Shown here piece after piece: positions 44,724 through 63,589 of a stretch of 64,000 nucleotides of DNA. The position numbers and the translations under genes are program-made. Within the stretch, counting starts at the first letter, position 1, and every line of letters starts with the position of its first letter. This DNA is from an uncultured Candidatus Binatia bacterium (GTDB lineage: Bacteria; Desulfobacterota; Binatia; Bin18). The stretch spans positions 32,001-96,000 of the forward strand of contig OZ241744.1 of NCBI GenBank assembly GCA_965200965.1, read 5' to 3'. The notes under the pieces are model-generated. The model did no database searches, was not told the DNA's origin, and saw only the letters and a program-made list of their open reading frames with translations.

Positions 44724-46561
44724 TGGACACGCCGCGCGAGCCCGAGCTGGGCAAAACCTATGACCTCGTTCTGCTGCGGCGGCTGTGGCGCTACGTCCGT
44801 CCTTACCGGGCGCGGTTTCTCCTGGCCCTGGTCTGTCTGCCGCTGACCTCAGCCTGTGTGCTGGCCCAGCCCTACCTGTTGAAGCTGGCCGTTGACCGCT
44901 ACATGCTCCAGCGCGAGCCCGAGGGGCTGGCCCTGGTCGGCCTGCTGTTTGCCGTTGCCCTGCTCGGCGAGTTTGTTTTCCTGTATACCCAGTTTCACGC
45001 CACCATGCTCATGGCCCAGAGCAGCCTGGCCGACCTGCGCCGCGATCTGTTCGCCCACTTGCTGGAGCTGCCGGCCCGCTTTTTTGAGCGCACCCCGGTC
45101 GGCCGCCTCGTCACCCGCCTGACGACCGATGTGGACGCGATTAACGAAGCCTTTTCGGCCGGCACGCTGACCATCTTCATGGATGTGCTGACCATGACCG
45201 GGATCGTCACCATTATGCTGCTGCTCGATCCGCAATTGGCCCTGGTAGCGCTGGTCCTGGTGCCGCCACTGGTGTTGAGCCTGAATTTCTTTCGGATTCG
45301 GACCCGCCAGAACTACCGGACGATGCGCAGCCGGCTGGCCCGGATCAACTCTTTTCTGCAAGAAACCATCTCCGGCATCCTGGTGGTCCAGCTGTTCGCC
45401 CAGGAGAAAAAGCTGTTTGGCGAGTTTGACCGGCGTAACCGTGACTACCGGGACGCCAGCCATGTGTCGAATATCTACGAGGCGAGCCTCTTCTCGGTGG
45501 TTGAAGCGATCAGTTCCGTCTCAATTGGGCTGATGCTGTGGTACGGTGCCGGCCAGGTCGGCAGCGGTATCGTGGCCCTGGGCACCCTGGTGGCCTTTGT
45601 CGATTATATCCAGAAACTGTTTGTGCCGATGCGGGAGTTCAGCGGCAAGTATACCACCCTGCAATCCGCCCTGAGCGCCATCGAGCGGGTCTTCCAACTC
45701 CTGGACACACCGGCGGCAATCACCTCGCCCGACACCCCCCGCCGGCCTCAGCAGGTCCGCGGCCGGATCGTGTTTGACCATGTCTGGTTTGCCTATGACG
45801 ATGAAGACTGGGTACTGCGGGACGTGTCTTTTACGCTTGAGCCCGGCGAAAAAATTGCCCTTGTCGGTGCCACCGGTGCCGGTAAAACGACGATCAGTAA
45901 GCTGCTCAGTCGCTTCTACGATGTCCAGCGCGGCCGGATTCTGATTGACGGCATTGATATCCGCGAGTGGGACCCGAAGGTCCTGCGGCGGCACATCGGC
46001 ACGGTCCTCCAGGACGTGTTCCTGTTTGTCGGTGATATTGTCACCAACATCAGCCTGGGCCGGACCGATATTGCGCCGGCAGCCCTGGAACGGGCCGCCC
46101 AGGCGGTCCATGCCGACCGTTTTGTCCGCCAGCTGCCCAAGGGCTATGCCGAGCAATTGTACGAACGCGGCTCCAACCTGTCCGCCGGCCAGCGCCAGCT
46201 CCTGTCCTTTGCCCGGGCCCTGGCCTACGATCCGGCCGTCCTGGTCATGGACGAAGCCACCTCAAGCGTTGACCCGGAGACCGAACTGCTCATTCAGGAC
46301 GCCCTGACAACGCTGATGGAAGGCCGGACCACCCTGGTGGTTGCCCATCGCTTTTCGACCATTCAGAATGTTGACCGCATCCTGGTCATGCACAAGGGCC
46401 GGCTGCGCGAGATGGGCAGCCACGAAGAACTGCTGGGCCGGCGGGGCATCTACTGGCGTCTGTACCAGTTGCAGTACAGCGGCCACGAGTCCGGCGGACA
46501 GGCTTCTCAGCCGGCGCGCTCAAACGAAAGCGAGGGGCTGCTTGGTGGGGAGACAGAGTGA
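44720..46561 (+). CDS. ABC exporter TMD+NBD half (MdlB-like)
   Basis: PVGRLVTRLTTD, GATGAGKT, LSAGQRQL, MDEATSSVD. Confidence 0.9.
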   Translation: MMDTPREPELGKTYDLVLLRRLWRYVRPYRARFLLALVCLPLTSACVLAQPYLLKLAVDRYMLQREPEGLALVGLLFAVALLGEFVFLYTQFHATMLMAQSSLADLRRDLFAHLLELPARFFERTPVGRLVTRLTTDVDAINEAFSAGTLTIFMDVLTMTGIVTIMLLLDPQLALVALVLVPPLVLSLNFFRIRTRQNYRTMRSRLARINSFLQETISGILVVQLFAQEKKLFGEFDRRNRDYRDASHVSNIYEASLFSVVEAISSVSIGLMLWYGAGQVGSGIVALGTLVAFVDYIQKLFVPMREFSGKYTTLQSALSAIERVFQLLDTPAAITSPDTPRRPQQVRGRIVFDHVWFAYDDEDWVLRDVSFTLEPGEKIALVGATGAGKTTISKLLSRFYDVQRGRILIDGIDIREWDPKVLRRHIGTVLQDVFLFVGDIVTNISLGRTDIAPAALERAAQAVHADRFVRQLPKGYAEQLYERGSNLSAGQRQLLSFARALAYDPAVLVMDEATSSVDPETELLIQDALTTLMEGRTTLVVAHRFSTIQNVDRILVMHKGRLREMGSHEELLGRRGIYWRLYQLQYSGHESGGQASQPARSNESEGLLGGETE

Positions 46562-46564
46562 GGC

Positions 46565-47629
46565 ATGTGGGTCTGGCTTGTCTGCCTGACGCTGCTGTCC
46601 GCCTGCTCGCCGGTCTATGTCCTCAGGCTGGGCTATGAAGAGGCCAGGATTCTGTGGCATCGCCGGCCCATCAGCGATATCCTGAACCGGCCCGACCTTG
46701 ACCCTGCCACCCGCGACAAGCTGCGCCTCGTCTTGCGCGTCCGGGCCTTTGCCGAACACGAATTAGGCTTCAGGGTCCGCGGCAGCTACGCCAGCCTGAC
46801 CGAAGTCAGCCGTCCGCCGATTGTGCATGTGCTGAGCGCGGCCCCGCGGACTCGTCTCGAGCCGTATACCTGGTGGTTCCCGATCGTCGGCCGGGTGGCC
46901 TACAAGGGCTATTTCAACCAGGGTTTGGCCCGGGCAGACGCGCGCCGGCTCGAAGTCCAAGGCTATGATACCGCTGTCCGCCAAGCGTCGGCCTTCAGTA
47001 CCCTGGGCTGGTTTGACGACCCGCTGCTGCCGCATCTGCTGGGCTATGAGGCCGAAACGCTGGTCAATGTGATTTTTCATGAACTGTTTCACAGCACGTT
47101 TTACCTGGCCGGACACACGGCGTTTAACGAATCCCTGGCCAATTTTGCCGGCCATCGGGCCGCGATTGTCTTTTTTGCCCAGGAACACGGCCAAGACGCC
47201 GTGCTCACCCGCCGGGCCGAAGCCGGCTGGAGGCGGCAACTGCGGCTGTCCGAGTTGCTGGCCCGGGCCGCCGAGGGTTTGCGGGCACTCTACGCCTCAT
47301 CCCTGCCCGAGGCCGACAAGCTCAGCCAACGGGAAGAACGGTTTGCCGCCTTCCAGGCCGAATATCGGGCCCTGGCCGGGCCGGCTTCGGCCAAGGCCGG
47401 GCTCGCCTCGGGCCGGCTCAACAACGCCATCCTGATCAACCATTTGGTCTATATGCGAGAGCTGGGGCTTTTTGAGCAGGTCTATCAACAGGCCGGCCAG
47501 GATTTGCGCCGCACCCTGGAGCGCATTCCTGAAGTGGCGACAGGAGCCGCGGAGCCGTTCGCCGAGGTAAAAACGCTGCTCAAGCGGCCGGTGTCAGAAG
47601 AGCGCAACCCAAGCGCGTGGAATGGCTAG
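46565..47629 (+). CDS. putative zinc aminopeptidase lipoprotein (DUF2265-like)
   Basis: LSA|C lipobox; WWFPIVGRVAYKGYF, FSTLGWFDDP, HELFH..FNESLA. Confidence 0.85.
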   Translation: MWVWLVCLTLLSACSPVYVLRLGYEEARILWHRRPISDILNRPDLDPATRDKLRLVLRVRAFAEHELGFRVRGSYASLTEVSRPPIVHVLSAAPRTRLEPYTWWFPIVGRVAYKGYFNQGLARADARRLEVQGYDTAVRQASAFSTLGWFDDPLLPHLLGYEAETLVNVIFHELFHSTFYLAGHTAFNESLANFAGHRAAIVFFAQEHGQDAVLTRRAEAGWRRQLRLSELLARAAEGLRALYASSLPEADKLSQREERFAAFQAEYRALAGPASAKAGLASGRLNNAILINHLVYMRELGLFEQVYQQAGQDLRRTLERIPEVATGAAEPFAEVKTLLKRPVSEERNPSAWNG

Positions 47630-47841
47630 ACCGCTGTCTCAACCCAATCGCTTTCAGAAGCGGGGCCTGGAATGGGCTGGCCGCACTCGCGCAGCCCCTC
47701 CAGGTGAAAGTCAATCGCTTCCTCAATCAGGGCTGTCGCTTCCTGCCGTGTCTCTGCCACTGCAATACAGCCGGGGAGGTCGGGAATGTGAGCGCCCCAG
47801 CCTGACTCGCCTTTTTCAAGAATCACGAGATAGTACATCAT
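47626..47841 (-). CDS. HicB-like antitoxin family protein (no adjacent hicA)
   Basis: YLVILEKGESGWGAHIPDLPGCIAVAETRQEA..AIDFHLEGL. Confidence 0.88.
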   Translation of the reverse strand: MMYYLVILEKGESGWGAHIPDLPGCIAVAETRQEATALIEEAIDFHLEGLRECGQPIPGPASESDWVETAV

Positions 47842-47856
47842 TTTCCCTTTTCAGGC

Positions 47857-48480
47857 TCACGCCTGTGCCTGCACAAACTCTACCGCGGCCTGGGCCGCGG
47901 CCCTCTCCTGTCCCCAGAAAAAATGGTCAACCCCGGCCAGTGTCACCAGCTTTTTGGGATCAGGCATCTTCTCGACCAGCTGTTGCAGTTCGGGGATGGG
48001 CGAGAAGGTGTCCGTATCTCCGCTGATGAGCAGCGTCGGCTTGTTGGCCGTCAGCAGAAACGACGGGTCCCGAAAGCCGACCGGCAGGGCCACGCCAATC
48101 AGCACACCCACCCGCTCATCCTCAGCCCCGGCGCGCAGCCCGACGAGAGAGCCGAATGAATACCCGGCGACAACGACCCTGGACACCGGCTGGCGGGTGA
48201 GCAGGGCGGTGACCGCGGCTTTGACATCTTCAACCTCAGCCTCGCCCTCGCCGTGGCTGCCCCCGCTGTGGCCCACCCCGCGAAAATTGAAGCGCAGGGT
48301 GGCAAGTCCGGTCTCCTGAAACGCCAGGGTCAGGGCCGACACCACAGTGTTGCGCATCTCGCCGCCGTACTGTGGGTGGGGATGACAGATCACCGCGCCG
48401 ATGGACGGGGCGGTGGGCGGCGATGAAAACAGTCCTTCGAGGCTGATATCTCCAACCGGAAACGTCATCTGTTCTTCCAC
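47857..48480 (-). CDS. alpha/beta hydrolase
   Basis: HPHPQYGGEM, RFNFRGVG, GYSFG, DHFF. Confidence 0.9.
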   Translation of the reverse strand: MEEQMTFPVGDISLEGLFSSPPTAPSIGAVICHPHPQYGGEMRNTVVSALTLAFQETGLATLRFNFRGVGHSGGSHGEGEAEVEDVKAAVTALLTRQPVSRVVVAGYSFGSLVGLRAGAEDERVGVLIGVALPVGFRDPSFLLTANKPTLLISGDTDTFSPIPELQQLVEKMPDPKKLVTLAGVDHFFWGQERAAAQAAVEFVQAQA

Positions 48481-48586
48481 GGCTTCTCCTGTTCATAGAC
48501 CCTGGTGTAGCACGCTCCGCGGCCGGCTGAAAGGACGGGTGCGCTTGTCAGCCGGGGTGTGTTGGCCTAGTCTGCACGCTGCTGCC

Positions 48587-49153
48587 ATGTCACATCCGCT
48601 GCGCCATACCCCCGAGTCCGTCCGATTCCTGGCCGACCGCACGGTCGGCAAGCTGGCCCGCTGGCTGCGCATCCTGGGCTATGACACCCTGTATTGGCCG
48701 CAGCTGACGCCGGTCGGCCTGCTGGCCGAGGGCCGCCGCCAGGGACGGGTGATCCTGAGCCGCAACACCCGCATTCTGCAAGGACGGAGCGTCTCGCCCT
48801 CCTCTCGGTCTGATGAGACGCGCCGGCCTTGGGTCAAAGACGCGCCGGCCTGTGTCTTCATCCGGCCCGCTCATTTCCGCCAGCAACTCAAGCAGGTGGT
48901 TGAAACGCTTGGGCTTGAGGTGACAAGCGCTGTGCTGAACCGCTGTGTGGCGTGCAATCAGGTCCTCCAGGCGGTCTCCAAGGCCGAGGTCGAGGCCCGG
49001 GTGCCGGCCTATGTGTGGCGCACCCAGTCGGCCTTTCGGCGCTGCCCCGGGTGTGGGCGTATCTACTGGCCGGCCAGCCACCGGGATCATATTCTGGCCG
49101 AGCTTGAGCGGCTGGGCTTGGCCGCGGCGACCGAAACGCGAGCGGAAAACTGA
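48587..49153 (+). CDS. Mut7-C RNase (PIN-like) domain protein containing a 17-aa palindrome-derived insertion
   Basis: FLADRTVGKLARWLRILGYDT, RCVACN, CPGCGRIYWPASH. Confidence 0.9.
   Translation: MSHPLRHTPESVRFLADRTVGKLARWLRILGYDTLYWPQLTPVGLLAEGRRQGRVILSRNTRILQGRSVSPSSRSDETRRPWVKDAPACVFIRPAHFRQQLKQVVETLGLEVTSAVLNRCVACNQVLQAVSKAEVEARVPAYVWRTQSAFRRCPGCGRIYWPASHRDHILAELERLGLAAATETRAEN
48780..48830 (+). repeat. 51-bp palindromic element, copy 1 (in frame in the Mut7-C gene)
   Basis: AAGGACGGAGCGTCTC-19 nt-GAGACGCGCCGGCCTT; 47/51 identical to the reverse complement of 49258-49308. Confidence 0.9.
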
Positions 49154-49590
49154 TGGCTGATCGCTGGGCCGGCTACTGGTTGTTGTGGGATGGGGGGTGA
49201 GGCTTCTGCCGCGGCTTTGTCGCTTGGGTCAAGCGACACGACCGGGCCGGTGTCATCGAGGACGGCGCGTCTCATCAGACCGAGAGGAAGGCGAGACGCG
49301 CCGTCCTTCGGGCTGTGGCCTGGCAGGACGCCCCCCGGCCGCCTGTGACGGATGAGTTGGCGCAGCGCTGTCGGCAGGCCCTCCATGTGATTACGCCGGC
49401 CGGCGAGACCTTGGCCGCCGGCCGGGCCAGTCTGTGTGTGCTGGGGCTGATCGGCTATCCGCGCTTGGCCCGTCTGGCCGGGCTACCGCCCTTCATCTGG
49501 GCGGTTGAGGCCGGCTACTGGCTTGTGGCCCGCAACCGGCGGTGGCTGAGCCGGGTGCTGTATGGCAAAAGCCAGCCCTGCCAATACTGA
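49153..49590 (+). CDS. DCC1-like (DUF393) thiol-disulfide oxidoreductase, candidate selenoprotein (UGA at codon 16)
   Basis: ATG overlaps the Mut7-C stop; MADRWAGYWLLWDGG-U-GFCRGF continues in frame to GYWLVARNRR; the UGA occupies the first Cys of DxxCxxC. Confidence 0.8.
49218..49238 (+). promoter_or_regulatory. bacterial SECIS-like hairpin
   Basis: TGTCGCTTG-GGT-CAAGCGACA perfect stem with a G-starting loop 26 nt downstream of the TGA at 49198-49200. Confidence 0.7.
49258..49308 (-). repeat. 51-bp palindromic element, copy 2 (inverted, in frame in the DCC gene)
   Basis: AGGACGGCGCGTCTC-19 nt-GAGACGCGCCGTCCT, a perfect 15-bp stem; encodes EDGASHQTERKARRAVL. Confidence 0.9.
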
Positions 49591-49652
49591 TGCGCGTCCT
49601 TAAAAGGCGTGATCGTGTCGCCTTCCCCTTGACCAGATGACACATTCACGCC

Positions 49653-49949
49653 TCAGTGCGACGGCGAGAGGGAGCGGGCGAGGCGTTCGGGAGAGAGGGC
49701 TTTTTCCAAGGGTCGCATGATCTGGCGTTCGACGGCCTGCCCGATATATGCGCTGCACGCCAGCCCCACAAGCCGCTGATATTGTTCGTGGGATATCTCC
49801 CCGCTGTCGCGGAACCTAGTCATTTTCCGGAGAAAAGCCCCGACATCTCTTGTGCTCAGTGAGCGGGGCTGGGGTGACTGTCCGGCTCTGGGACGCGGCA
49901 GGCGGTACGGCCGTAGGCGGGGAGCGTATGGCTTTGTAGCGTGTTTCAT
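49653..49949 (-). CDS. hypothetical basic protein, copy 1 of a duplicated gene
   Basis: Near-identical to 52640-52939, including about 60 bp of downstream flank. Confidence 0.6.
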   Translation of the reverse strand: MKHATKPYAPRLRPYRLPRPRAGQSPQPRSLSTRDVGAFLRKMTRFRDSGEISHEQYQRLVGLACSAYIGQAVERQIMRPLEKALSPERLARSLSPSH

Positions 49950-50041
49950 GGCTGTTCCGTCGGTCAATCGCGTGTTGTCTCCACCTTTGTCGCTGGTGTA
50001 GAGGAGCGGGGCGAGGGCCTGTGACACACCGCGTCGAGACC

Positions 50042-50425
50042 TTATGCAAGAGGCTGGGGTAACAAAACCGGCCTGGAGTGTTCGGCCAACTCCGCTTGCC
50101 AATCAAGGATGTCATCGCTCGGCCAGCCGGTAATGTTTGCGTGTCCAGGAGGGGTGTTGTCATACTCGACGCTCAGACCGCCAGGTCTCTCTGGGACAGC
50201 GTGTGTCGCAAGAATAGCCCACCCGTGCAATTTCTTTCCTCTGTCGCGCGCAACGGTTACGCCGCACTCTTCTGTGCGTTCATGCGGCCATGTATTGGTC
50301 CGAAACACGGAGACCTTGCCTTGGTGGGGTTGAAAGAGTTTGGCTTTCACGCCGGTCGCAGGCATCTTGTTCTTTTCCACGACAAATCGGGTCAGGGGTG
50401 GGCTGTCCTGGAGGCGTCCCATCAC
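50042..50425 (-). CDS. hypothetical protein, possible ADP-ribosyltransferase/RES-like toxin
   Basis: LTRF...LFQP..KVSVFR...LSVEYD..GHANITGWP (R-S-H spacing); abuts the upstream gene; low GC. Confidence 0.55.
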   Translation of the reverse strand: MMGRLQDSPPLTRFVVEKNKMPATGVKAKLFQPHQGKVSVFRTNTWPHERTEECGVTVARDRGKKLHGWAILATHAVPERPGGLSVEYDNTPPGHANITGWPSDDILDWQAELAEHSRPVLLPQPLA

Positions 50426-50893
50426 CTACCTGTCCTTTTCCTGTATCTGCGCCAATTTGGTAAAGCAGGGATCAATCAAATCTGCAATCTGATCCTCCCA
50501 AGCCCCAAGGTTTTTTGAGCGCGCCGTTCCATAAGTGCAGACATAGGCAACTGTTCCGTCCGGGTCAACCGTGAGCAGCAGCCGCCCATCTTTTTCAAGC
50601 ATCCATTCAAAATATACCCCTCCCTTTTCGGTCGCGCTCACGTCCGGGGCAGGAAGAGCAAAACAGTCTGCCGGGAACTGGTCAATCAGTTGGTGCGCAT
50701 ACTCTACCGCTTCGGGCGCGGCTGCTCCGTCAAACTCTGCTCCAATCTCCCCTTCCAAAAGTGCCCGGACCTCCCCCTCTTGGCGTTCTCTCTCCCTCTG
50801 TTCTTCCTCACCAGAGGAGAAAAATCTACTCACAGGCCGCATAGGAAGAGACCCTGGACAGGGTTCTTCCTCGGACATTTTGGATTCACTCAT
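50426..50893 (-). CDS. acidic hypothetical protein, possible antitoxin
   Basis: PAPDVSATEKGGVYFEW..LLLTVDPDG; its stop is directly followed by the start of 50042-50425. Confidence 0.6.
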   Translation of the reverse strand: MSESKMSEEEPCPGSLPMRPVSRFFSSGEEEQRERERQEGEVRALLEGEIGAEFDGAAAPEAVEYAHQLIDQFPADCFALPAPDVSATEKGGVYFEWMLEKDGRLLLTVDPDGTVAYVCTYGTARSKNLGAWEDQIADLIDPCFTKLAQIQEKDR

Positions 50894-50977
50894 GCTCAGG
50901 CCCTCTTCAGTTTGTGCGGTTTTATAGCCTGTTATGATGATCACACCGTAATGGCGCAATCCTACAAACTCTTTCTA

Positions 50978-51097
50978 CTGATGCCGACCCGCTGTCAACC
51001 CCCCCGTGGGGAAGCGGCAGGGGGGTGTCGGATGACGCTGTGCTACCCCGACCTGCGCGACTGGCTTGTGGCCCGCAACCGGCGGTGGCTGAGCCGG
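50978..51097. repeat. composite spacer 1: TTGACA-containing repeat + REP-like hairpin + 38-bp exact copy of the DCC gene 3' region
   Basis: 50978-51025 resembles 51990-52034; 51060-51097 is identical to 49517-49554. Confidence 0.85.
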
Positions 51098-51139
51098 TTC
51101 GTAGCGGGGGCAGGAGAGCGGGGCGGGTGAGGGCAGGAC

Positions 51140-51712
51140 TTACTTTGCTTTTTCCAAATCGGCGTAGGTCATAATTTTGTGATCTTGAACATCGAAGAAG
51201 TGGGCGAGCCAGCGCTGATAAAAACGAATATGGGCAAACTGACTTCTATCGTAATCCATAGCGCGTAGTAATTCGTTGTGGCACATCATATCAAGGACCC
51301 GATGGACTGGCGGTTCATCCGCCTCGATCCCAAGACGGTGCGCTCGAAACTTGGTGAGGGAGTGCATATCTCTCGGTTTTTCGGCCATTTCCATCTGCTG
51401 CTCAAGTTCGATAAATCGACGACACAAATCATCGTGGAGGCGGGCCGCAGGACCAGTCCCGACAACAAGGTCAATGGTGAAAAAGACAGTCACCAAGGCC
51501 GCGGCCAGGGAAGGGTAAAGCGTGCCCACATCGTTCAGCAGGGTAACGACCGTTGCCGAGCCAAAGATAACACCTAGCGCACTGGTGACTTGGCGGAAGC
51601 GGTCAAAGAACATCCGCCGCCGGGCGTGATAGCGAATGGACCGCCGAACGCCGAAAAGCAGGGCGTGCCACTCAGTATCGGGTTGATTTTGTGTTACGGT
51701 GTGGCCACTCAT
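51140..51712 (-). CDS. SLATT-like 2-TM effector protein
   Basis: LLFGVRRSIRYH..FFDR, two TM helices, AARLHDDL..FIELE, IEADEPP. Confidence 0.65.
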   Translation of the reverse strand: MSGHTVTQNQPDTEWHALLFGVRRSIRYHARRRMFFDRFRQVTSALGVIFGSATVVTLLNDVGTLYPSLAAALVTVFFTIDLVVGTGPAARLHDDLCRRFIELEQQMEMAEKPRDMHSLTKFRAHRLGIEADEPPVHRVLDMMCHNELLRAMDYDRSQFAHIRFYQRWLAHFFDVQDHKIMTYADLEKAK

Positions 51713-51754
51713 GACACTCTTCCCACATGTAGGATTGAAAAATTGACTTCCTGG

Positions 51755-51979
51755 TTAGTTGCTGTCGTCACCGTCGTCTTTCGGGGGTGGAGGTGGGAGG
51801 GTATCGCGTATTGTTTCTGTACGAGGCTTGTTGCTGTGACGAAATTCCTCGTCAATTCTTTCTCTGGGGCGGTCCTCGAGGGTTTTCTCTTTTTCTGCCT
51901 CTCTTTCTTTGAGGCGGTCCTCGAGGGTTTTCTCTTTTTCTGCCATTCGCTTTTCCTTTCTACGGGTTATCTTGAGCAT
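51755..51979 (-). CDS. small charged disordered peptide with an internal repeat and PPPPPK motif
   Basis: AEKEKTLEDR occurs twice (32-bp exact repeat, 45-bp period, 51868-51944); lies directly upstream of the SLATT-like gene. Confidence 0.55.
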   Translation of the reverse strand: MLKITRRKEKRMAEKEKTLEDRLKEREAEKEKTLEDRPRERIDEEFRHSNKPRTETIRDTLPPPPPKDDGDDSN

Positions 51980-51989
51980 ATCTTACTCG

Positions 51990-52132
51990 CTGATGCAAAC
52001 CCGTTGTCAACCCCTGTGGGAAAGCGGCAGGGGGCGTATCGGATCAGCGTAGCGTGATCCGATACGCACGACTAGCCTGTCTGGCCGGGAGGCCGGCTAT
52101 TGGCTTGTGGCCCGCAACCGGAGGTGGCTGAG
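51990..52132. repeat. composite spacer 2: TTGACA-containing repeat + perfect REP-like hairpin + degenerate DCC 3' copy
   Basis: GCGTATCGGATCA-GCGTAGCG-TGATCCGATACGC (52034-52067); 52089-52132 matches 49507-49550 at 42/44. Confidence 0.85.
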
Positions 52133-52140
52133 GGCAAAAG

Positions 52141-52575
52141 CTAGCCCCGCCAATGCCGGACGCCGTAGCCGGCCCCAAAGCCGCCAGCAAAAGCAGCAAG
52201 CACTTGGACAATCTGTTTATAGAGTTCTTTGTCAGCCGGTGCCAAGTAGAATGTCAACAGGCCGAACGAGAGAAGCACAATCAGGATGTAGACCAGCCTG
52301 TAGCGCCGGTCGGCCTTGGAGTACTCGAATGATCGCTCATCGTTCCTGCCGTCGTTCTCGATGAGTGTAGTGATATGGTCTTCGGTGAGCTTTTCGAGTA
52401 CGGGATTACGGGCGGGACCAATTGTTCCTGCAATAACTTGCTCAAATTGCTCTTCTATGACCTGTCGAGAAGCTGGGACAGAAGCCTCTTCTTGTCCGGG
52501 AGATTCTTGCTGCTCGCCCTCTGGGGTTGGTTTCGTGAGCGAACTATCAGGGCTGTCCGTGGGCTTGTCAGCCAC
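52141..52575 (-). CDS. 2-TM membrane protein (DUF2335-like architecture)
   Basis: Acidic disordered N-terminus, GPARNPVLEKLTEDHI, two C-terminal TM helices ending GGFGAGYG. Confidence 0.6.
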   Translation of the reverse strand: MADKPTDSPDSSLTKPTPEGEQQESPGQEEASVPASRQVIEEQFEQVIAGTIGPARNPVLEKLTEDHITTLIENDGRNDERSFEYSKADRRYRLVYILIVLLSFGLLTFYLAPADKELYKQIVQVLAAFAGGFGAGYGVRHWRG

Positions 52576-52639
52576 CGCTGGGCGTCCTTAAGAGGCGTGA
52601 CCGTGTCGCCTTCCCATCAGCCAGATAACCATTCACGCC

Positions 52640-52939
52640 TCAGTGTGACGGCGAGAGGGAGCGGGCGAGGCGTTCGGGGGAGAGAGCTTTTTCCAAGGGT
52701 CGCATGATCTGGCGTTCGACGGCCTGCTCGATATATGCGCTACACGCCAGCCCCACAAGCCGCTGATATTGTTCGTGGGATATCTCCCCGCTGTCGCGGA
52801 ACTTGGTCATTTTCCGGAGAAAAACCCCGACATCTCTTGTGCTCAGTGAGCGGGGTTGGGGTGACTGTTCCGCTCCGGTACGCGGCAGGCGGTACGGCCG
52901 TAGGCGGGGAGCGTATGGCTTTATGGCAGTCTGTTTCAT
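52640..52939 (-). CDS. hypothetical basic protein, copy 2
   Basis: GAGGA RBS; paralog of 49653-49949. Confidence 0.65.
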   Translation of the reverse strand: MKQTAIKPYAPRLRPYRLPRTGAEQSPQPRSLSTRDVGVFLRKMTKFRDSGEISHEQYQRLVGLACSAYIEQAVERQIMRPLEKALSPERLARSLSPSH

Positions 52940-52947
52940 GGGTGTCC

Positions 52948-53223
52948 TCAGGCTGTGCGCGGCGCGGTGCGGCTGATCACGCGGCTCTCACGTTCCTGAA
53001 ACCGTGTGCGTAAATCCCGGCGCAGGCCGTAGAGCGGAATGCCGCCCGGGGTGAGGGGCGACCGGATAAACAGGTCCTGATGTGCCTGGATGTAGGTCTG
53101 GACTTGCTCCGGGGAGAGGCCGGTCTGTCTGGCGATGCCCCCCGGAGTGCGCCACAGGGAGCGGGGGCCACAAAAGGCATTCACCAGCTTCGCCCCAATG
53201 GGATCAGTAAACAGTTCATTCAT
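52948..53223 (-). CDS. small protein, possible winged helix-turn-helix
   Basis: AGGAGG RBS; WRTPGGIARQTGLSPEQVQTYI; ATGA overlap with the upstream gene. Confidence 0.6.
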   Translation of the reverse strand: MNELFTDPIGAKLVNAFCGPRSLWRTPGGIARQTGLSPEQVQTYIQAHQDLFIRSPLTPGGIPLYGLRRDLRTRFQERESRVISRTAPRTA

Positions 53224-53567
53224 GGTGACTCCTCCTGTTGAGAAAGGCACTCGGGTTTAACCCGCGTGGTGATGATGTCCGCGAGCGCATCCTGAAACCC
53301 GTCGCTGTTGATAAACTCCTTGAGAGGCGTCACGTCTTCGTACAGATTGCGGGGCCGCCAAACCGTAATCCCTGCAACGACGAGGATCACGATCAGGAAC
53401 ACGATTATCATCAGTACAACTACATAAAATTGGTGGTCCGCACTGAGTTGAGAATTGATGACGACTAAGCCGATAATGCCTTCAATAACCAGCAAGCCCA
53501 CGGTGAAAAAGATCAGTGGATTGCGGACCTGAGTGAGCAACTTGGCTGGATTCTGTCCCACCGTCAT
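53220..53567 (-). CDS. 2-TM membrane protein
   Basis: VRNPLIFF + two hydrophobic helices + RPRNLY; CTGACC-17 nt-TAGAAT promoter candidate at 53648-53620. Confidence 0.7.
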   Translation of the reverse strand: MTVGQNPAKLLTQVRNPLIFFTVGLLVIEGIIGLVVINSQLSADHQFYVVVLMIIVFLIVILVVAGITVWRPRNLYEDVTPLKEFINSDGFQDALADIITTRVKPECLSQQEESP

Positions 53568-53778
53568 TTACGGTTGTCCCGTCGGTCAATCTCGCGTTGT
53601 CTCCCCCTTTGTCCCGTTCATTCTACTCCCCCCGCGTCGCAGGGTCAGCAGTTTTCCCCATGAAATATTCTTATCGGCTAGCATCAGCGCGTCTTATCAA
53701 AGCGGGCACTACGGGGAATGCGGGGACTTGGGGGAGGGGCGAAGGTCAGGGGAATCCCGGAATCATATGAGTCGGGGT

Positions 53779-56667
53779 TCAGACCCGGCCTTTGCCACCA
53801 TGTACGGAGGGTTCGGCGCACCATTTGGCGGCCAAGCGACGCACGGCCTTCCAGGTGGCTTCGGTGAAGCCGAGCAGGTCGCGGACGACACCGCGGTCGA
53901 GCCGGGCGCGGTTGGGGTCGGCCGCGGCCAAGTGGGCCGGCAGCAATACTGTGGTGCGGAACTCGTCGAAGATGGCCCGGGCGGTAGCAAGCTGGGCGGG
54001 GCTGAGGGCGCGGAAGTCAAGGACAGGCAGGGTTTCGGCGGAGCGGATGGTGAGCCGGGCCTTGCTGGATTGCTGGCGGCTCGAGTGCCACCAGTACGAT
54101 AGGAGGCCCAGGGTGCTGTTGCTCCACACGGCGAAGGCGTAATCGAATGTTCCATCGTCAAAAATGACGTTGGGCCACACCGTCCCGCCTATTGATGCGT
54201 GATCGGTGAAGGCGACTGCGAGGGGTTGAGAGCCAAATGTGTACTCCAGGTTAAGATGAACGCGGCTGGCGGTTGCCCATACCTCGGCGGCTTTGGTTTC
54301 CATGCCTATCCGAACCTGCAAGGCCGAGTCAGGGGCGCACACCATCCGCGTTTCTTTTTTGGCAGCGTGGTTCCACAGGGCGGGGTAGGTGGCGGTCGGG
54401 CTGGCCGCGGCCTTGGTGAACGGCCCACGCGGGGGCGGGCCGATGATGTCACGATGGACGAGGCCGAGCCTGCCTACCACGCCTAGGGGAGCGGTTTTCA
54501 GCTCAAGGGCGGCGGTGGCCGGCAGCCACAGTTGGGAGCGGGTCAGGGCGTAGGCGGTTTGGGCCAGGGCAGCATCCAGCAGCCGGACTGTGCCCCACGG
54601 TGCGCCGTTGGTGGGGCACGGGGCGGTCAGCGTCTCGCCGGCCAGTTCATCCCCGACGGTCAGGCGTGTGCCGCCGTAGGGGCCGTCTTCAATGTGCCGG
54701 ATGTTGTCGGCCGTGGCGATGCTTCTGGCCAGTTCGGCGGCCTGGGCAAAGCCCTGCGGGCGGTGGGTCAAGGAGACGAAACGGGCCGCCTGTAGGGCGT
54801 CGTCCGACTTGGCGTCACGGCGTTTGCGGGCAATGACCAGGCATTCGGCCATGCCCGTGTCTGAGGAGAAGGACATCTCCATGCCGGAGGCGGCAATGCT
54901 CAACACGGTCAGGTCTGTATATTTTTGGGCGAGCATATGCCGGAAGCCCTGCCAGGACAGGCCGGCGGCCGCGGACAGGGGCAGGACCAGGGCCAGCACG
55001 CCGCCGGGCTTGAGCTTGGCGTGGGCCAAGCCGGCAAAGGCCGAGGCAATGCCTGCGTTGCCGTGATAGCAACTGTGCTTGCCAAAGGTGTTGATGCGGG
55101 CTCCCATCGCGGTCTGGTCGGCCCGCGTGGCGTCAAACGCGGCAAAAGCCGGGTTGGTCACGTCGGCGTGTGCGCCCTCGTGGTTGGTGGCGCGGGTGAA
55201 AGGCGGGTTCATAATCACCAAGTCAAAACCCTCGTCTGGAATATCGGCCAGAATGTGGGTGGCGGTTTCTTCGCCAAGGCTGCCGGTGCGCTTGGCCGGA
55301 TCGCTGGTGTTGAGGAGTACCAATTGCCGGGTGGAGTGCAGCAGTTCCAGTGAGCCGATCTTCACGCTGGCGTCTGGCTGGCGGCCGTAGGCCAGGGTGT
55401 AGAGGCGCGAGCTGCCAAAGCTGGCTTGGGGCTGGACGCCGGACAGGGTGGAGCCGGTGATGTGGATGGCTGAGGGCATCACGTCGCAGCCGTACAGGAC
55501 TTCTTCCATCATGACCGGATGGAGGTCGGCCGGGTTGCCGCCGGTGCGCTCGTGGCGGCTGGCGATCTGCTCGTAGACCGCGGACAGCAGCGCGCCGGTG
55601 CCGCAGGCAAAGTCGGCGATGCGCAGCCGGCCAATGGCCGCGGGGTCGGCCCAGTCCAGGCCGCGGAGCTTGGCCACAGCCAAGCGGGCCAGCAGGGCCG
55701 CGGAGGCCGGCAGGGTGTAGAAGGTGGCCAGGTATTTGCGGTCGGCAATCAGACGCTGGAAGATGCGCCCGGTCAGGTCATGGGCGTTGGTGGCACCGGT
55801 GGAGGCGACGCCTTCGGCGGTGTGTCGCAGGGCGTGCAGGAGGGGGGCGGCGGTGGCCGGTGGCAGTTGGGCCACGATATCGCGGGCAATCGCAAAGATG
55901 GGCCAGTAGTTGATGTCCAGGATGGCGGTCCAGGCGGTCAGGATTTCATCCTGGGGGTTGGTGACAGCTTGGCCACAGACGAGGTGCAGGGGCTTGACCT
56001 CGGGGTACATACCGGCCAGCCGCTCGTGGAAGATCAGGGCGTTGGCAAGAATGGCGCAGGCCATGCGGCGGGTCTGGGCCACATCGGCCATGCCCAGCAG
56101 CCGGGCGATATGGGGGGCAATGGCCGGGCGTTGCTCGGCCATGTCGTGCAGGATGCTCACGCCGGCGTCAATGCCGTCCTCGAGGGCGCTGGCCGCGGCG
56201 TCTACGGCGTGCTGGGGGATGGACACGAGGCGGATCAGGTCGGCCAGATCGGCAACTGAGCCGGTCAGCCAGCCGGCGGCGGGAAAGCGCTGTGTATCCT
56301 GCTTATTCTGGCTGAAGACGCACCAGGACAGCGTGGCCCCGGCTATGGCCGCTTGCAGATCGTCGGCGGAAGCCAGGGTTTGCGGGTAGCGCAGGGCGAT
56401 AGCGGCCTCAATGGGGGTGGATTCGTGCACGACCGGCAAACCGAGACGGCTCGCAGCCTCGGCCTCGACGCTGCGGGCCGGGAAGTATTCGGCTTCAAGT
56501 GCGACCGGGGCGCGGTCCGGGGCGGTGATGGCGATGTCGAGTTGCAGCCCGGCATGGCCGGCGACAAGCCGGGTGTGCTCGGCCCGGACCTGGCAGCCGG
56601 ACATCATGCCGTTCAGCAGCCCGGCCAGGGCGGTGTTGGCGCTTGGTTCGGTCTGGTGGCCGCTCAT
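53779..56667 (-). CDS. single-chain restriction-modification protein (type IIG-like: nuclease-like N-terminus, N6-adenine methyltransferase, target-recognition domain)
   Basis: ATFYT, IADFACGTGALL (motif I), VIMNPPF (motif IV); N-terminal LDIAI...ALEAEY PD-(D/E)xK-like segment. Confidence 0.8.
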   Translation of the reverse strand: MSGHQTEPSANTALAGLLNGMMSGCQVRAEHTRLVAGHAGLQLDIAITAPDRAPVALEAEYFPARSVEAEAASRLGLPVVHESTPIEAAIALRYPQTLASADDLQAAIAGATLSWCVFSQNKQDTQRFPAAGWLTGSVADLADLIRLVSIPQHAVDAAASALEDGIDAGVSILHDMAEQRPAIAPHIARLLGMADVAQTRRMACAILANALIFHERLAGMYPEVKPLHLVCGQAVTNPQDEILTAWTAILDINYWPIFAIARDIVAQLPPATAAPLLHALRHTAEGVASTGATNAHDLTGRIFQRLIADRKYLATFYTLPASAALLARLAVAKLRGLDWADPAAIGRLRIADFACGTGALLSAVYEQIASRHERTGGNPADLHPVMMEEVLYGCDVMPSAIHITGSTLSGVQPQASFGSSRLYTLAYGRQPDASVKIGSLELLHSTRQLVLLNTSDPAKRTGSLGEETATHILADIPDEGFDLVIMNPPFTRATNHEGAHADVTNPAFAAFDATRADQTAMGARINTFGKHSCYHGNAGIASAFAGLAHAKLKPGGVLALVLPLSAAAGLSWQGFRHMLAQKYTDLTVLSIAASGMEMSFSSDTGMAECLVIARKRRDAKSDDALQAARFVSLTHRPQGFAQAAELARSIATADNIRHIEDGPYGGTRLTVGDELAGETLTAPCPTNGAPWGTVRLLDAALAQTAYALTRSQLWLPATAALELKTAPLGVVGRLGLVHRDIIGPPPRGPFTKAAASPTATYPALWNHAAKKETRMVCAPDSALQVRIGMETKAAEVWATASRVHLNLEYTFGSQPLAVAFTDHASIGGTVWPNVIFDDGTFDYAFAVWSNSTLGLLSYWWHSSRQQSSKARLTIRSAETLPVLDFRALSPAQLATARAIFDEFRTTVLLPAHLAAADPNRARLDRGVVRDLLGFTEATWKAVRRLAAKWCAEPSVHGGKGRV

Positions 56668-56683
56668 GCGTTCTTCCTCCTGC

Positions 56684-57136
56684 CTAGACCTGGCCCAACT
56701 GGCGCAGGGCCTCGTATAGCACGATGGCCGCGGCGTTGGACAGGTTCAGGCTGCGGACGTGTTGGCCCGGCATGGGGATGGTGTACAGGGACTCGGCTAA
56801 CTCGGCCCGGATAGAGGCTGGCAGGCCGCGCGTTTCACTGCCAAACACCAGCAGATCGTCGGGCCGATAGCAGACCTGGGTGTAGGACTCAGTGGCCCGG
56901 GCCGAGAAGGCCAGCAGCCGCCCGACGGGCCGCCGGCGGAGAAATTCGCCCCAATCCGCATAGGTCTGCACAGCGACATGCGGCCAGTAGTCCAGGCCGG
57001 CCCGCTTGAGATAGCGGTCTTCAAGGGAGAAGCCGAGGGGACCGACGAGGTGAAAGGCGGTGTGTGTGGCCGCGCACAGCCGGGCGGTGGTGCCGCTGTT
57101 GGGCGGAATCTCGGGCGCAACAAAGACGATGTGCAT
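56684..57136 (-). CDS. trmL: tRNA (cytidine(34)-2'-O)-methyltransferase
   Basis: PEIPPNSG, LKRAGLDYW, FGSETRGLP, RSLNLSN. Confidence 0.93.
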   Translation of the reverse strand: MHIVFVAPEIPPNSGTTARLCAATHTAFHLVGPLGFSLEDRYLKRAGLDYWPHVAVQTYADWGEFLRRRPVGRLLAFSARATESYTQVCYRPDDLLVFGSETRGLPASIRAELAESLYTIPMPGQHVRSLNLSNAAAIVLYEALRQLGQV

Positions 57137-57140
57137 GGGG

Positions 57141-57620
57141 TCAGGACTGAGGATCGGCCACGGAGATGGGGTAGGCGGTGTCGTTGAGGCGCAGGACAAA
57201 CGCCCCGGTCTCAGGCTCTTCGTCAATATAGGCGGCCAGTTGATAGTAGGCCGGGCGGGAGAAACGGGCCAGGTGGGCGTGTCCTTTGACCCGGCAGTAC
57301 ACGACATTGTCCGGTCCGATGTGCAGCGTGTCAGGGCTGAGGGCTTCTTCGCTGGTGTCGTTCAAGCGGACCCTGAGACCCCGGTCACGGTCGCCGCCCA
57401 GCGCGGTCACAAGGTAGGGCGCGTCGTCGATCTCAACCGTGGCCGTGTCCCGACCCAGCACAATCTGGTAGCGGCCGTCTTCAGTCCGCCGCAGATGTTG
57501 GCTGAACAGCAGGTTGATGCGCCGGTTTTCGATCCGCTCGTCATTGGCGTACCACCAGCCGTCTTTCCCAAAGCTGATCGTGCGGATGGAGTCAATCGCC
57601 CAGAATCCTGCTTTTGGCAT
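57141..57620 (-). CDS. DUF1285-like protein
   Basis: DGWWYANDERI, VEIDDAPY, YCRVK..ARFSRPAYYQL. Confidence 0.8.
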   Translation of the reverse strand: MPKAGFWAIDSIRTISFGKDGWWYANDERIENRRINLLFSQHLRRTEDGRYQIVLGRDTATVEIDDAPYLVTALGGDRDRGLRVRLNDTSEEALSPDTLHIGPDNVVYCRVKGHAHLARFSRPAYYQLAAYIDEEPETGAFVLRLNDTAYPISVADPQS

Positions 57621-57644
57621 ACGCCTTCGTCTCCCGCGCGTCGG

Positions 57645-58103
57645 TTATCTGGCCCGCGACTCGTTCACGTTGTCCAGGATGATCGTCACTGGCCCGTCGT
57701 TCACTACCTCGACGGCCATATCGGCCTGGAAGCGGCCGGTGGCCACCCGGATGTTGTGGCTCCTGGTCCGCTCTACAAAATACGCGTACAACGGGCGGGC
57801 CAGCTCGGGGCCGGCCGCGGCACTGAACGACGGCCGCCGGCCCTTGCGGCAATCGGCGTACAGGGTGAACTGTGACACGATGAGCAACTCGCCCCCAAGG
57901 TCACGCAGGGAACGGTTGAATGTGCCGGTCTGGTCCGAAAAGATGCGCAGCCCGATAATTTTATTGCTGAGATAGTCGGCCTGCGCCCGGGTGTCGTCGG
58001 CCCGAATGCCGAGCAGGACGACCAAGCCATGCCCAATCTGGCCGATGCACTCCCCGTCTACCGAAACCTGGGCGTGGCTCACCCGCTGAATGACTGCTCG
58101 CAT
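57645..58103 (-). CDS. dtd: D-aminoacyl-tRNA deacylase
   Basis: MRAVIQRV, VSQFTL, KGRRPSF, NDGPVT. Confidence 0.95.
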   Translation of the reverse strand: MRAVIQRVSHAQVSVDGECIGQIGHGLVVLLGIRADDTRAQADYLSNKIIGLRIFSDQTGTFNRSLRDLGGELLIVSQFTLYADCRKGRRPSFSAAAGPELARPLYAYFVERTRSHNIRVATGRFQADMAVEVVNDGPVTIILDNVNESRAR

Positions 58104-58238
58104 CTGCCTGTAGTGTTAGCCGACTCCCGGCCAGCAGACAAGCGCGCCCGCCTGGTATCGCCGAGGACGGAATGTGTCATCAGATCAACAGGAAGGCGAC
58201 ATGTTCCATCCTTCCGGTCTGTCGGCTATGATTCGAAT

Positions 58239-59006
58239 ATGCATCCGGTTCTCCTCAGCCTCGGACCCGTAACCATTTACAGCTATGGGGTAATGATGGC
58301 GTTCGGCTTTGTGGCCGCCGGCTGGGTGATCAGAAAGGAGTTGCAAGGCCAGGGCCGAGAGCCAGACCTGGCGGCCAGCTTGGTGCTGTGGGCGGCCGTG
58401 GGCGGCCTGGTCGGTGCCCGCCTGCTGTTTATTCTCGATACTTGGCCGGCGTTTGTGGCCGATCCCTTGGCGTTGATCCTGACCGGGGCCGGCTTTATCT
58501 GGTACGGCGGTCTGCTGGGCGGGATTGCCGGGGTGAGCCTGTGTATTCGGCGCTATCGGCTGCCCTGGCTGCGGACAATGGATATCGTCGCGCCGGCCAT
58601 TGCGCTCGGCCACGGCATTGGCCGGATTGGCTGCCATCTGGCCGGTGACGGCGACTGGGGACCGCCGACCGATTTGCCCTGGGGCGTGGTGTATAGTCAG
58701 GCGGTTGTCGGCTGGCCGTACCCGCCGGGGGTGGCCGTCCACCCCACACCGCTGTACGAATGGGCCGCCTATTCCCTCATCTTTGTCTTTTTGTGGCACC
58801 GCCGGACCACCGCCCATCGGCCCGGTGCCCTGTTTTGGGGCTATCTGGTGCTGGCCGGGCTGGCGCGTTTTGGGCTGGAGTTTGTCCGTATCAATCCAGG
58901 CGTACTGTTGGGGCTGTCTCTGGCCCAGGTGATGAGCATTCCCCTGGTCGCCTGTGGGGCGTGTATGCTGCTCAGACCTGCCGGGGCCGAGGAGAAGGCC
59001 AGGTGA
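58239..59006 (+). CDS. lgt: prolipoprotein diacylglyceryl transferase
   Basis: YSYGVM, GARL, WYGGLLG, GRIGCHLAG, HPTPLYE, RFGLEFVR. Confidence 0.93.
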   Translation: MHPVLLSLGPVTIYSYGVMMAFGFVAAGWVIRKELQGQGREPDLAASLVLWAAVGGLVGARLLFILDTWPAFVADPLALILTGAGFIWYGGLLGGIAGVSLCIRRYRLPWLRTMDIVAPAIALGHGIGRIGCHLAGDGDWGPPTDLPWGVVYSQAVVGWPYPPGVAVHPTPLYEWAAYSLIFVFLWHRRTTAHRPGALFWGYLVLAGLARFGLEFVRINPGVLLGLSLAQVMSIPLVACGACMLLRPAGAEEKAR

Positions 59007-59584
59007 GAAAGTGGGGTGTCCTTGGTCTGGTCGTACTGGGGTGTGGGTTTGTCCTGCTCACCCTCCTTCCCGCTGGGCCGAGCCTGCCAAAAGCCGCCGA
59101 GGATTTTGTGTTGCCCGACATCCACGGGCAGGTCGTGCGGCTGTCGCAGTTGAAGGGCAAGGTGGTTTTTCTCAATGTGTGGACGACCTGGTGTCCGCCG
59201 TGTCGCCAGGAGATGCCGACCATGCAGACCCTCTACCGCCAGCTCCAGGGCGAAGACTTTACGGTGCTGGCCGTCAGCCAGGACGTGGATGGTCACAAGA
59301 CCGTGGTGTCGTATCTGAGTGAAGGCGGCTATACCTTCCCGGTTTTGTTAGATGTGCGTGGGGAAGTTGGCAGGAAATACGGGGTGAGCGGCTATCCAGA
59401 GACCTTTCTGATTGATCGCCAAGGCATGATTGTGCATCACCATATCGGCTACAACAACTGGGCCAGTCCCGAGTCTGTCGCCGCGGTCCGGGGGCTGATT
59501 CAGCACGGGGTGTGGACACCGCCGCCGGGTGCGGACACGCCCGGCGAACAGTTGCCGCTGCGGCCCTCGCGGCCTGAGCGTTGA
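59003..59584 (+). CDS. TlpA/ResA family thiol-disulfide oxidoreductase
   Basis: N-terminal TM; KGKVVFLNVWTTWCPPCRQEMP, YPETFLIDRQG. Confidence 0.9.
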   Translation: MRKWGVLGLVVLGCGFVLLTLLPAGPSLPKAAEDFVLPDIHGQVVRLSQLKGKVVFLNVWTTWCPPCRQEMPTMQTLYRQLQGEDFTVLAVSQDVDGHKTVVSYLSEGGYTFPVLLDVRGEVGRKYGVSGYPETFLIDRQGMIVHHHIGYNNWASPESVAAVRGLIQHGVWTPPPGADTPGEQLPLRPSRPER

Positions 59585-59772
59585 GACCTGCGTCGTGCGG
59601 TGTGGGTCAGGCCCGACCCGCGAATAACCCTATACCGGCCTCGGGTGAGTATGCTATGGTCACGGCTCTCGGCCTGTGACAGCGGAAGCTGCTGGAAAGA
59701 AGGACGGATTGCGTCGCCTTCCCCTCGTTCTGTTGACGCGAGCCGTCCTCATGGACTGTGAAAGGGGCACAC

Positions 59773-61173: not shown

Positions 61174-61180
61174 GCGGTCA

Positions 61181-62452: not shown

Positions 62453-62687
62453 GGCCGGGTTGCACGATTTGGAAGGGATTGTGGAGCGGATGGAAACCGG
62501 GGAGCTGTCGCTTGAGGACGCCCTGGGGGCTTTTGAGGAAGGGGTTGGTCTGGTCCGTCATCTGGGCGAGAAACTGGCCGAGGTTGAGAAGCGCCTGGAG
62601 GTGCTCAGCCGCGATCAGGACGGCGTGTTCCAGCTTCACGCCCTGCCCACTGACCCCGAAGACCAGGCACAGAACGAGGACTCGTGA
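62427..62687 (+). CDS. xseB: exodeoxyribonuclease VII small subunit
   Basis: FEAGLHDLEGIVERMETGELSLEDALGAFEEG. Confidence 0.93.
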   Translation: MKQPPKTFEAGLHDLEGIVERMETGELSLEDALGAFEEGVGLVRHLGEKLAEVEKRLEVLSRDQDGVFQLHALPTDPEDQAQNEDS

Positions 62688-63589
62688 ATCTGACCCGCTA
62701 TATGAAAGAACGCCAAGGGCTGGTTGACCGGACGCTCAGAGCCGTTCTGGCCCCGTCCGCGGGGAAACCGCCCCGGGCCTTGGACCGAGCCATGCGCTAT
62801 AGTCTGTTTTCCGGTGGCAAGCGCATTCGTCCCATTCTGGCCCTGGCCAGTGCTGAGGCGCTCGGCGCAGACCTCGAGCCGGTCCTGCCGTTTGCCTGTG
62901 GCCTGGAGATGATCCATGCCTATTCCTTGGTCCACGACGATCTGCCAGCTATGGATGACGACGAGCTGCGGCGGGGCAAACCGACCAATCATGTGGCGTT
63001 TGGCGAAGGCATGGCGATTTTGGCCGGCGACGGGCTGCTGACCGAGGCGTTTCGGGTGATGGCCGAAGGCGCGCTGGCCGCCCCTCGGCGGGGGCAGGCG
63101 GCGCTCCGGGCGCTGTGCGAGGTGGCTGCCGCGGCCGGTGCCAGCGGCATGGTGGGCGGACAGGTCCTGGACCTGGAGGCCGAAAAGAAAAAATCGACCC
63201 GCGCCATCGTTGAGGCGATTCATACCCGGAAAACCGGAGCGATGATTCGCGCCGCTGTCCGGGTTGGGGCGCTGCTGGGCGGTGCCACGCCCCGCCAATA
63301 CGAGCGCTTGGACCGGTATGGAACGACGATTGGCTTGGCCTTTCAGGTGACGGACGACATTCTGGATATCGAAGGCGGCACAGAAAAAACCGGCAAACGC
63401 CAGGGCCGCGACGCCGAGCTGCACAAAGCCACCTATCCGGCCGCCATCGGCCTTGACCGGGCCAAACGCCTGGCCGGCGAGTTGCGCGAGGACGCGCTGG
63501 CGGCTCTTGAGCCTTTTGGGCCGACGGCTGAGCCGCTGCGTCAGCTCTGTCACCATATTGTCAACCGGGCCGTGCCGGCCCAAACGTGA
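62684..63589 (+). CDS. ispA: farnesyl/geranyl diphosphate synthase
   Basis: [40 protein letters not shown]. Confidence 0.94.

Follow-up and report, generated by a model that had tools for sequence, protein, structure and literature searches.

The two hairpins that lie in opposite orientations within adjacent genes of the DNA analysed here (the window, 64,000 nucleotides from an uncultured Candidatus Binatia bacterium) are exact insertions, made without target duplication, of a 51-nt mobile element that carries no gene. The insertion sites of this element family obey a one-sided target rule that is new here, namely a C at -4, counted 5' from the insertion point, on one of the two strands, and we propose, at a probability of about 0.45, that the element moves by single-strand excision and local reinsertion through the host type IA topoisomerase, TopA. 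The fuller statement, whereby a 51-54 nt hairpin with topoisomerase I-site ends uses the essential TopA as its transposase and has neither an enzyme of its own nor a partner transposon, is put forward a shade more tentatively. The features of the locus are as follows.

48587-49153, + strand: gene for a protein with a Mut7-C RNase domain (PF01927), 188 aa, host of copy A (Pfam).
48780-48830, + strand: copy A, a 51-nt hairpin, in frame (phase 1) in the Mut7-C gene.
48838-48851, + strand: native Mut7-C stretch with a 14-nt match to the right arm of copy A (sequence comparison).
49153-49590, + strand: gene for a DCC1-like thiol-disulfide oxidoreductase (PF04134), a predicted selenoprotein, host of copy B (Pfam).
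49218-49238, + strand: SECIS-like stem-loop, starting 18 nt past the UGA (predicted fold).
49258-49308, - strand: copy B, a 51-nt hairpin, in frame (phase 0) in the DCC1-like selenoprotein gene.

Copy A has a 19-nt loop and arms of 16 nt with two internal mismatches, whilst the arms of copy B form 15 perfect pairs; the two are an inverted pair with 47/51 identity, as the initial annotation of this DNA had reported, and each is indeed exactly 17 codons long and open in the frame that its gene uses. The further claims that excision would leave natural sequence and that no target-site duplication is present are confirmed by the empty alleles of a same-genus genome (G007), which has exactly 51 nt fewer at each site and no duplicated target bases (RNTRILRAKDAP at the copy A site and HDRADVIRAVAWQ at the copy B site). 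Comparison with orthologs agrees: the 17 residues of copy A are absent from 13/13 aligned Mut7-C proteins, one further ortholog having been excluded for a stop in its translation. In the AlphaFold model of the Mut7-C protein the insert is a predicted disordered loop in an otherwise confident fold (residues 68-86 with pLDDT <50, mean 81.9).

The reading frame of the DCC1-like gene requires the UGA at 49198-49200, in a U-x-x-C motif, to be read as selenocysteine; the TGA is kept in frame in DCC1-like orthologs of the same genus (g1), and orthologs in genus g8 have no stop there. ORF callers shorten this gene (49153-49590). The SECIS-like stem is also predicted in G007, which lacks the insertions, and copy B leaves it undisrupted. 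It had been suggested that the two copies might pair in the shared mRNA around the UGA and SECIS, and copies A and B do pair together in the predicted minimum-energy fold of 48770-49320 (z -7.7); the SECIS-like stem survives in this same fold, and a putative function of the pairing found no support. Since inverted neighbouring copies occur elsewhere in the family (locus L088), the pairing is most likely a by-product of local hopping. The suggestion that the copies bound an invertible segment of 427 bp fared less well, there being no inversion joint in the contigs of four other runs, in an assembly format that drops rare variants; contigs of runs X3, X6 and X7 (two studies) run gap-free across both copies, whose orientation is unchanged, and run X11 (a third study) covers both in pieces.

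The hairpins belong to a large family. An iterated profile identified 98 copies scoring at least 20 in the 3.62-Mb source genome (G000), and since the best score in the reversed genome was 0.1, chance similarity is excluded; a covariance model built from 55 copies gave 131 matches in G000 and 73 in G007. The arms differ among G000 copies and remain paired, with 132 both-side changes vs 45 in shuffles (0/500), and the 19-nt loop is conserved in G000 and G007. By our own gene calling 47 of the 98 copies lie inside predicted ORFs, the coding fraction of the genome being 0.86, and 33 of these 47 are more than 90 nt from both ORF ends. Ten host genes were checked by NCBIfam, including dnaX, thrS, murF, aroB, ispE, murJ, rnhC and cas3; five of the six element frames are commonly open and in use, with no shared peptide. 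The length of 17 codons (18 in relatives) and the mostly open frames would let copies persist in genes. Copies show no sense/antisense bias relative to genes (15 vs 15) and no leading/lagging bias, and their density drops away from the skew-inferred origin (38, 19, 18, 4, 13 and 6 per bin). Among individual hosts, cas3 (G000:C1:2840128-2842941) carries three in-frame copies, and thrS (G000:C1:1914262-1916115) has one copy inside and one overlapping the gene end. Besides copies A and B, the window holds four further members of the family, which the initial annotation had overlooked.

49604-49654, + strand: third family copy, intergenic, with arms that are different yet paired (profile match).
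About 52592-52641, + strand: family copy with one indel, inside a 368-nt local duplication (sequence comparison).
58163-58213, - strand: further family copy, intergenic (profile match).
59700-59750, + strand: further family copy, intergenic (profile match).

Amongst relatives the elements, found in genera g1 and g8, are 54 nt long in 72/117 cases, with nearly invariant arms and variable loops. A strict two-arm pattern was found in 27 of 55 genomes of the family and in none of 19 genomes of its other eight genera, and the 151 class-level genomes yielded just two weak matches outside the family, both lacking arms. A scan of a genome collection with an exact-core pattern gave 0 matches, and a degenerate pattern gave three, of which two are in a Ca. 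Binatia assembly and one is an unpaired chance match; a metagenome scan gave a single match, by chance, and two viral scans gave none. A search of 46000-64000 against Rfam returned no match at the gathering score, and no published description of the 51-nt family was found in a literature search that covered few subscription journals.

Mobility was assessed by comparing empty sites across 0.8 Mb of G007, plus further G007 loci, with G000. Whilst 38 of the 98 G000 copies could not be placed, the 60 placed copies comprised 27 that correspond to exact 51-nt gaps, 9 that are shared and 24 others; reciprocally, of 30 G007 copies 6 sites are exactly empty in G000, 6 are shared, 15 are other and 3 were unplaced. 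These are script-assigned classes, and by eye many of the sites scored as other turn out to be empty but to have an indel close by and a few to be shared, and one scored as shared is empty. The about 100 copies, the reciprocal empty sites and the in-frame copies in named genes bear out the initial proposal of a coding-compatible mini mobile element. Flank duplication of at least 4 nt is absent in 33/33 exact empty/filled pairs. A slight excess of flank identity over 1-3 nt (30 vs 22, 11 vs 6.5 and 5 vs 1.8; 46 vs 30 and 16 vs 8) was considered as duplication and rejected, because the empty alleles lack exactly 51 nt.

Copies alike in sequence tend to lie near one another: the copy closest in sequence lies within 5 kb for 18 of 94 copies, where 1.7 are expected and the maximum in 1000 trials was 8. 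The loop is inverted between G000 and G007 at two shared sites, and at L031 in G007 a full copy has a second one as host, its insertion point being a C(-4) site within the loop of that second copy. Mutation beside the junctions (0.167 vs about 0.11, p 0.07) is not significantly raised.

At the locus itself, one arm had been noted to recur about 20 bp downstream in native Mut7-C sequence; the recurrence is real, covers 14 nt and lies 22 nt away, and 13/14 of its positions are present in the G007 empty allele. Copy A is alone among 94 copies in having an arm-versus-flank match of at least 10 nt (0.05 expected per 94 at 13 nt), the arm motif shared with native Mut7-C sequence occurs in only 2/94 copies, A and B, and the left arm of copy B carries a compensating change. 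The native sequence at 48838-48851 is the likely template for conversion of the copy A arm, and copy B was likely derived from copy A. Insertion into Mut7-C would have come first, followed by conversion of the arm by the native sequence downstream and then by a local hop of 478 nt from the Mut7-C copy into the DCC gene, with arm correction. The purely local template-switch origin raised earlier for the pair is not supported, although one arm of the Mut7-C copy was probably shaped by local conversion. That flanking DNA templates the arms in general was rejected, such templating being seen in 1/94 copies.

The target rule emerges when the two flanks are considered jointly. Counts of C at -4 (56/94) and of G at +4 (54/94) at first look palindromic; across the 94 sites, both are present at 23, one at 64 and neither at 7, such that 87/94 sites have the C at -4 on one strand or the other, compared with about 47 for matched random sites. 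The two bases are negatively associated (Fisher p 1e-4; p 0.057 for the exact empty alleles alone, n=33), and this, together with the 23 sites having both (25-29 expected), fits a rule of C at -4 on one strand. For random sites matched for codon phase and intergenic share, neither base was present at 47 sites, the lowest value among 2000 draws being 29. The rule applies inside genes (neither, 2/36) as well as outside them (5/58) and, among offsets 1-9, only to offset 4. A polar model outperforms a symmetric one with gains of 39.8 in G000 and 40.9 for 97 distinct sites of relatives, where the null maxima over 25 shuffles each are 31.3 and 30.3, respectively. The 54-nt elements of relatives follow the rule more weakly (neither, 28/117; polar model with C 0.57 at -4 and G 0.60 at -5). 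There is additionally a weak symmetric preference at -5/+5 and -6/+6, and element orientation is independent of target polarity (33 vs 31).

The ends of the element show a related pattern. Amongst 188 element 3' ends, T is found at -5 in 133, at -2 in 169 and at -1 in 107, and C at -4 in 177 (the end C being partly built into the search profile); a circle would continue past the 3' end with A in 107 cases and with G in 66. Most copies of the 54-nt type end in TCTTT and start with A. Joined end to end, the element termini give a junction similar to TCNTT^A, the cleavage motif of E. coli topoisomerase I: the exact motif would form on at least one strand in 16/94 copies and TCNTY^R in 63/94, TCNTTA having a background frequency in G000 of 2e-4 per position. 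Bacterial topoisomerase I cuts one strand 4 nt 3' of a C that is read by R169, R173 and Y177 (PMC3467081), and the in vivo motif of the E. coli enzyme is TCNTTA/T, with cleavage at TA (PMC9352719). A C at -4 of the cut, as for a type IA topoisomerase substrate, is found at 87/94 targets and 177/188 ends. The family matches the type IA rule in its one-strand C 4 nt 5' of the cut and in an end-to-end junction resembling TCNTT^A (PMC3467081, PMC9352719), but there the rule is described for relaxation and cleavage and not for element movement, and the targets here are GC-rich, showing no AT-rich E. coli motif beyond C at -4 and T/G at -5.

In the mechanism that we propose, one strand of melted or negatively supercoiled DNA would fold into the hairpin, so bringing the element ends together. 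Because C stands at -4 both in the flank and at the element end, both junctions on that strand would after insertion be CNNN^ sites, one supplied by the target-derived flank C and the other by the terminal C-Y-T-Y of the element; CNNN^ at both junctions is an IS608-like layout for single-strand excision and reinsertion via 5'-phosphotyrosine links. Two 5'-phosphotyrosine cleavages followed by crossed rejoining would yield a 51-nt single-stranded circle with the junction TCNTY^R and would also seal the donor strand, whereupon running the reaction backwards at a CNNN^ site close by would insert the circle, and replication would copy the second strand. Such a route would leave no duplication, because a single strand is inserted and the second is then made by replication, and it would account for the exact ends, the use of either orientation, the selection on pairing and the short-range hopping.

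G000 has one topA, in which the aligned R-R-x-x-D-R-x-x-G-Y motif is present, and a search for a second paralog gave matches in 54 genomes, 53 of which have a single topA. In other g1 genomes (L272; G001, G005, G006 and G004) the topA domain match exceeds that of G000 by 66-105 nt, and L272 is without family arms. Several points count against the TopA mechanism. TopA normally reseals its own break, and the terminal C lies inside the paired stem, so that the end must fray. topA is present in every relative, yet complete genomes such as G004, G014 and G101 showed no copies, and the space between divergent genes holds no excess of intergenic copies (8 vs 10.9 expected). The closest pair of G000 copies agrees at 49/51 positions, none being identical, and end type tracks target polarity only weakly (25 vs 13). 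The small share of copies with the exact TCNTT^A junction, the weaker rule in the 54-nt relatives and the lack of an AT-rich target motif also weigh against it. A literature search returned no title or abstract on TopA-driven transposition.

The main alternative, which we rate somewhat below the TopA route, is a single-strand transposase dedicated to the element, either of the HUH type or with a fold not recognised here, that reads the hairpin, happens to prefer C at -4 and has been lost from G000 or is supplied by passing mobile elements. Exact insertion, the lack of duplication, selection on the hairpin and a polar target are all as in IS200/IS605 and RAYT systems, the family is patchy within its two genera, and the conserved loop in G000 and G007, with the conserved arms in genus g8, suggests a specific reader. 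Enzymes can moreover be lost, since G000 retains GTAG REPs without their RAYT (none was found in G000; G006 has a RAYT flanked by a similar REP). Against this, the single-C rule is far shorter than a guide-paired tetranucleotide, and no such enzyme came to light in a search covering seven mobile-enzyme Pfam families (Y1_Tnp, tyrosine and serine recombinases, RT, TnpB, DDE_Tnp_1 and IS110), TopIB and by-eye screens. Y1, DDE_Tnp_1, IS110, serine recombinase and TopIB matches are absent from G000 and G007, each of which has two tyrosine recombinases, and Y1_Tnp is also absent from the element-rich genomes G003, G005, G156, G109, G174, G175, G176, G140 and G178. None of 19 Y1 loci examined in relatives is flanked by family arms, and tblastn of the relatives' Y1 proteins against G000 gave no match, such that the RAYT or IS200 link anticipated in the initial annotation did not materialise. 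No candidate was found by eye among 160 neighbouring genes and 185 basic soluble proteins, nor by motif and uncalled-ORF screens, and half-elements at 1272631, 3578567 and 2214289 have no bordering transposase.

Improbable, in our estimation, is the reading as a classical MITE whose 16-bp terminal inverted repeats are acted on in trans by a DDE transposase that inserts bluntly. The nearly invariant arms and freely varying loop in genus g8 are what terminal inverted repeats would give, the weak symmetric preference at -5/+5 and -6/+6 and the local hopping are compatible with it, and DDE_Tnp_1 genes exist in G125, G093 and G156. The absence of duplication and the polar target nevertheless speak against it, as do the G000 arms, whose sequence varies with pairing kept, and the lack of DDE_Tnp_1 in G000 and G007; ends 19 bp apart would also be hard to synapse as duplex DNA. 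In 400 kb of G093/G156, and in small loci besides, no larger element is bordered by a near-exact solitary arm, and the ends of the 4 DDE loci examined bear no family arm.

Slightly less credible again is movement with no transposase at all, by local polymerase template switching or nick repair at sites marked by TopA cleavage complexes or similar lesions: local clustering, the loop inversion at two shared sites, the one arm converted by flanking DNA and the C(-4) rule would fit, but exact 51-nt boundaries without flanking microhomology at dozens of sites would not, and the same motif at the element's own ends is left unexplained. Spread through an RNA intermediate and reverse transcriptase is the least probable of all, since, despite a stable RNA hairpin and RT genes in G000, G007 and G093, the G000 RT gene has an interrupting stop and resembles a stand-alone defence-type RT, a search of G125 yielded no RT, the two strands are equally able to fold, with G-T and A-C mismatches balanced (75 vs 64), and there is neither an Rfam match at the gathering score nor a strand bias relative to genes.

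Other enzyme loci were seen in passing. The stand-alone RT (L161, G000:C1:2404925-2406298), split by TAG in G000, is intact in G007. A search for a TnpB-type domain gave no candidate mover; the domain is absent in G125 and G093. A frameshifted large gene at G000:C1:680319-683974, which from its motifs we take to encode a type V-like CRISPR effector, adjoins what is presumably a Cas1-like gene and gave no mover candidate; G007 and G004 have long open frames at the TnpB-domain match that corresponds to it.

With respect to known systems, the Rickettsia palindromic elements (RPE) are described as gene-less, lineage-restricted palindromic repeats that often lie in frame in unrelated housekeeping genes (PMC10969869, PMC3733652). 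Like these (see also PMC3184786), the present element is a repeated palindrome in frame in unrelated genes (47/98 in predicted ORFs) whose orthologs lack the residues, and among the genomes searched it occurs in two Binatia genera only; it differs in being 51-54 nt rather than about 150 nt, in having no shared peptide and in its one-sided target rule, as judged from the published descriptions. The family also resembles the GTAG/CGTC REPs (PMC3733652) in comprising small hairpins in many copies, some in genes, and the CGTC REPs are presented there as having no known transposase; unlike the REPs of that account it has no unpaired terminal GTAG/CGTC tag, a 16-bp stem and 19-nt loop in place of 8-9 bp and 4-5 nt, single units rather than dimers and no linked RAYT. 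The arms of 15-16 bp are like the terminal inverted repeats of a classical MITE, but target-site duplication is absent. With IS200/IS605 elements the family shares the lack of duplication, a polar target 5' of the insertion, a hairpin substrate and the proposed 5'-phosphotyrosine chemistry, whereas it has no TnpA or Y1 gene, a one-base in place of a tetra- or pentanucleotide target, both ends in one hairpin with no separate end hairpins, and either orientation relative to the target. The small dispersed repeats of Nostoc, reportedly characterised by Elhai et al. in 2008 as very small mobile hairpins of 21-27 nt that insert in frame in multiples of three, are similar by that description in their tiny hairpin, multiple-of-three length and in-frame position.

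The family appears to work like RPE-type intragenic palindromes, by a mechanism that is possibly categorically new. How tiny palindromes enter genes without duplication and without a partner transposase is a question that RPE-like and CGTC-type repeats raise as well, and this family makes it cheap and direct to test, the substrate being 51 nt long, the target rule a single base and the candidate enzyme well studied. Should TopA prove responsible, loop insertions of 17-18 residues in essential proteins would have a housekeeping enzyme as one source, and other orphan in-frame, duplication-free palindromes, in which the C(-4) rule can be checked, might have arisen by the same route; should it not be involved, the family would still point to an unidentified single-strand recombinase.

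Downstream of the DCC gene, the region 49550-56700 looks like a variable cassette array in which the DCC 3' end serves as attachment repeat and which ends at a methyltransferase-like ORF. The 3' end of the gene recurs three times (49507-49550, 51050-51093 and 52089-52132), each time followed by different small opposite-strand ORFs; in G007 the DCC end leads directly into the gene that lies here at 51140-51712, and other strains show different joints. The 368-nt duplication (49591-49955 and 52579-52945, 92%) carries a hairpin copy and an ORF of 98-99 aa, the latter with no Pfam or PADLOC match; amongst the ORFs downstream of the DCC gene, the sole PADLOC match is the methyltransferase-like ORF. 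A separate GTAG-type REP family, with 116 matches to its 8-nt core in G000, is represented in the window at about 52030-52065.
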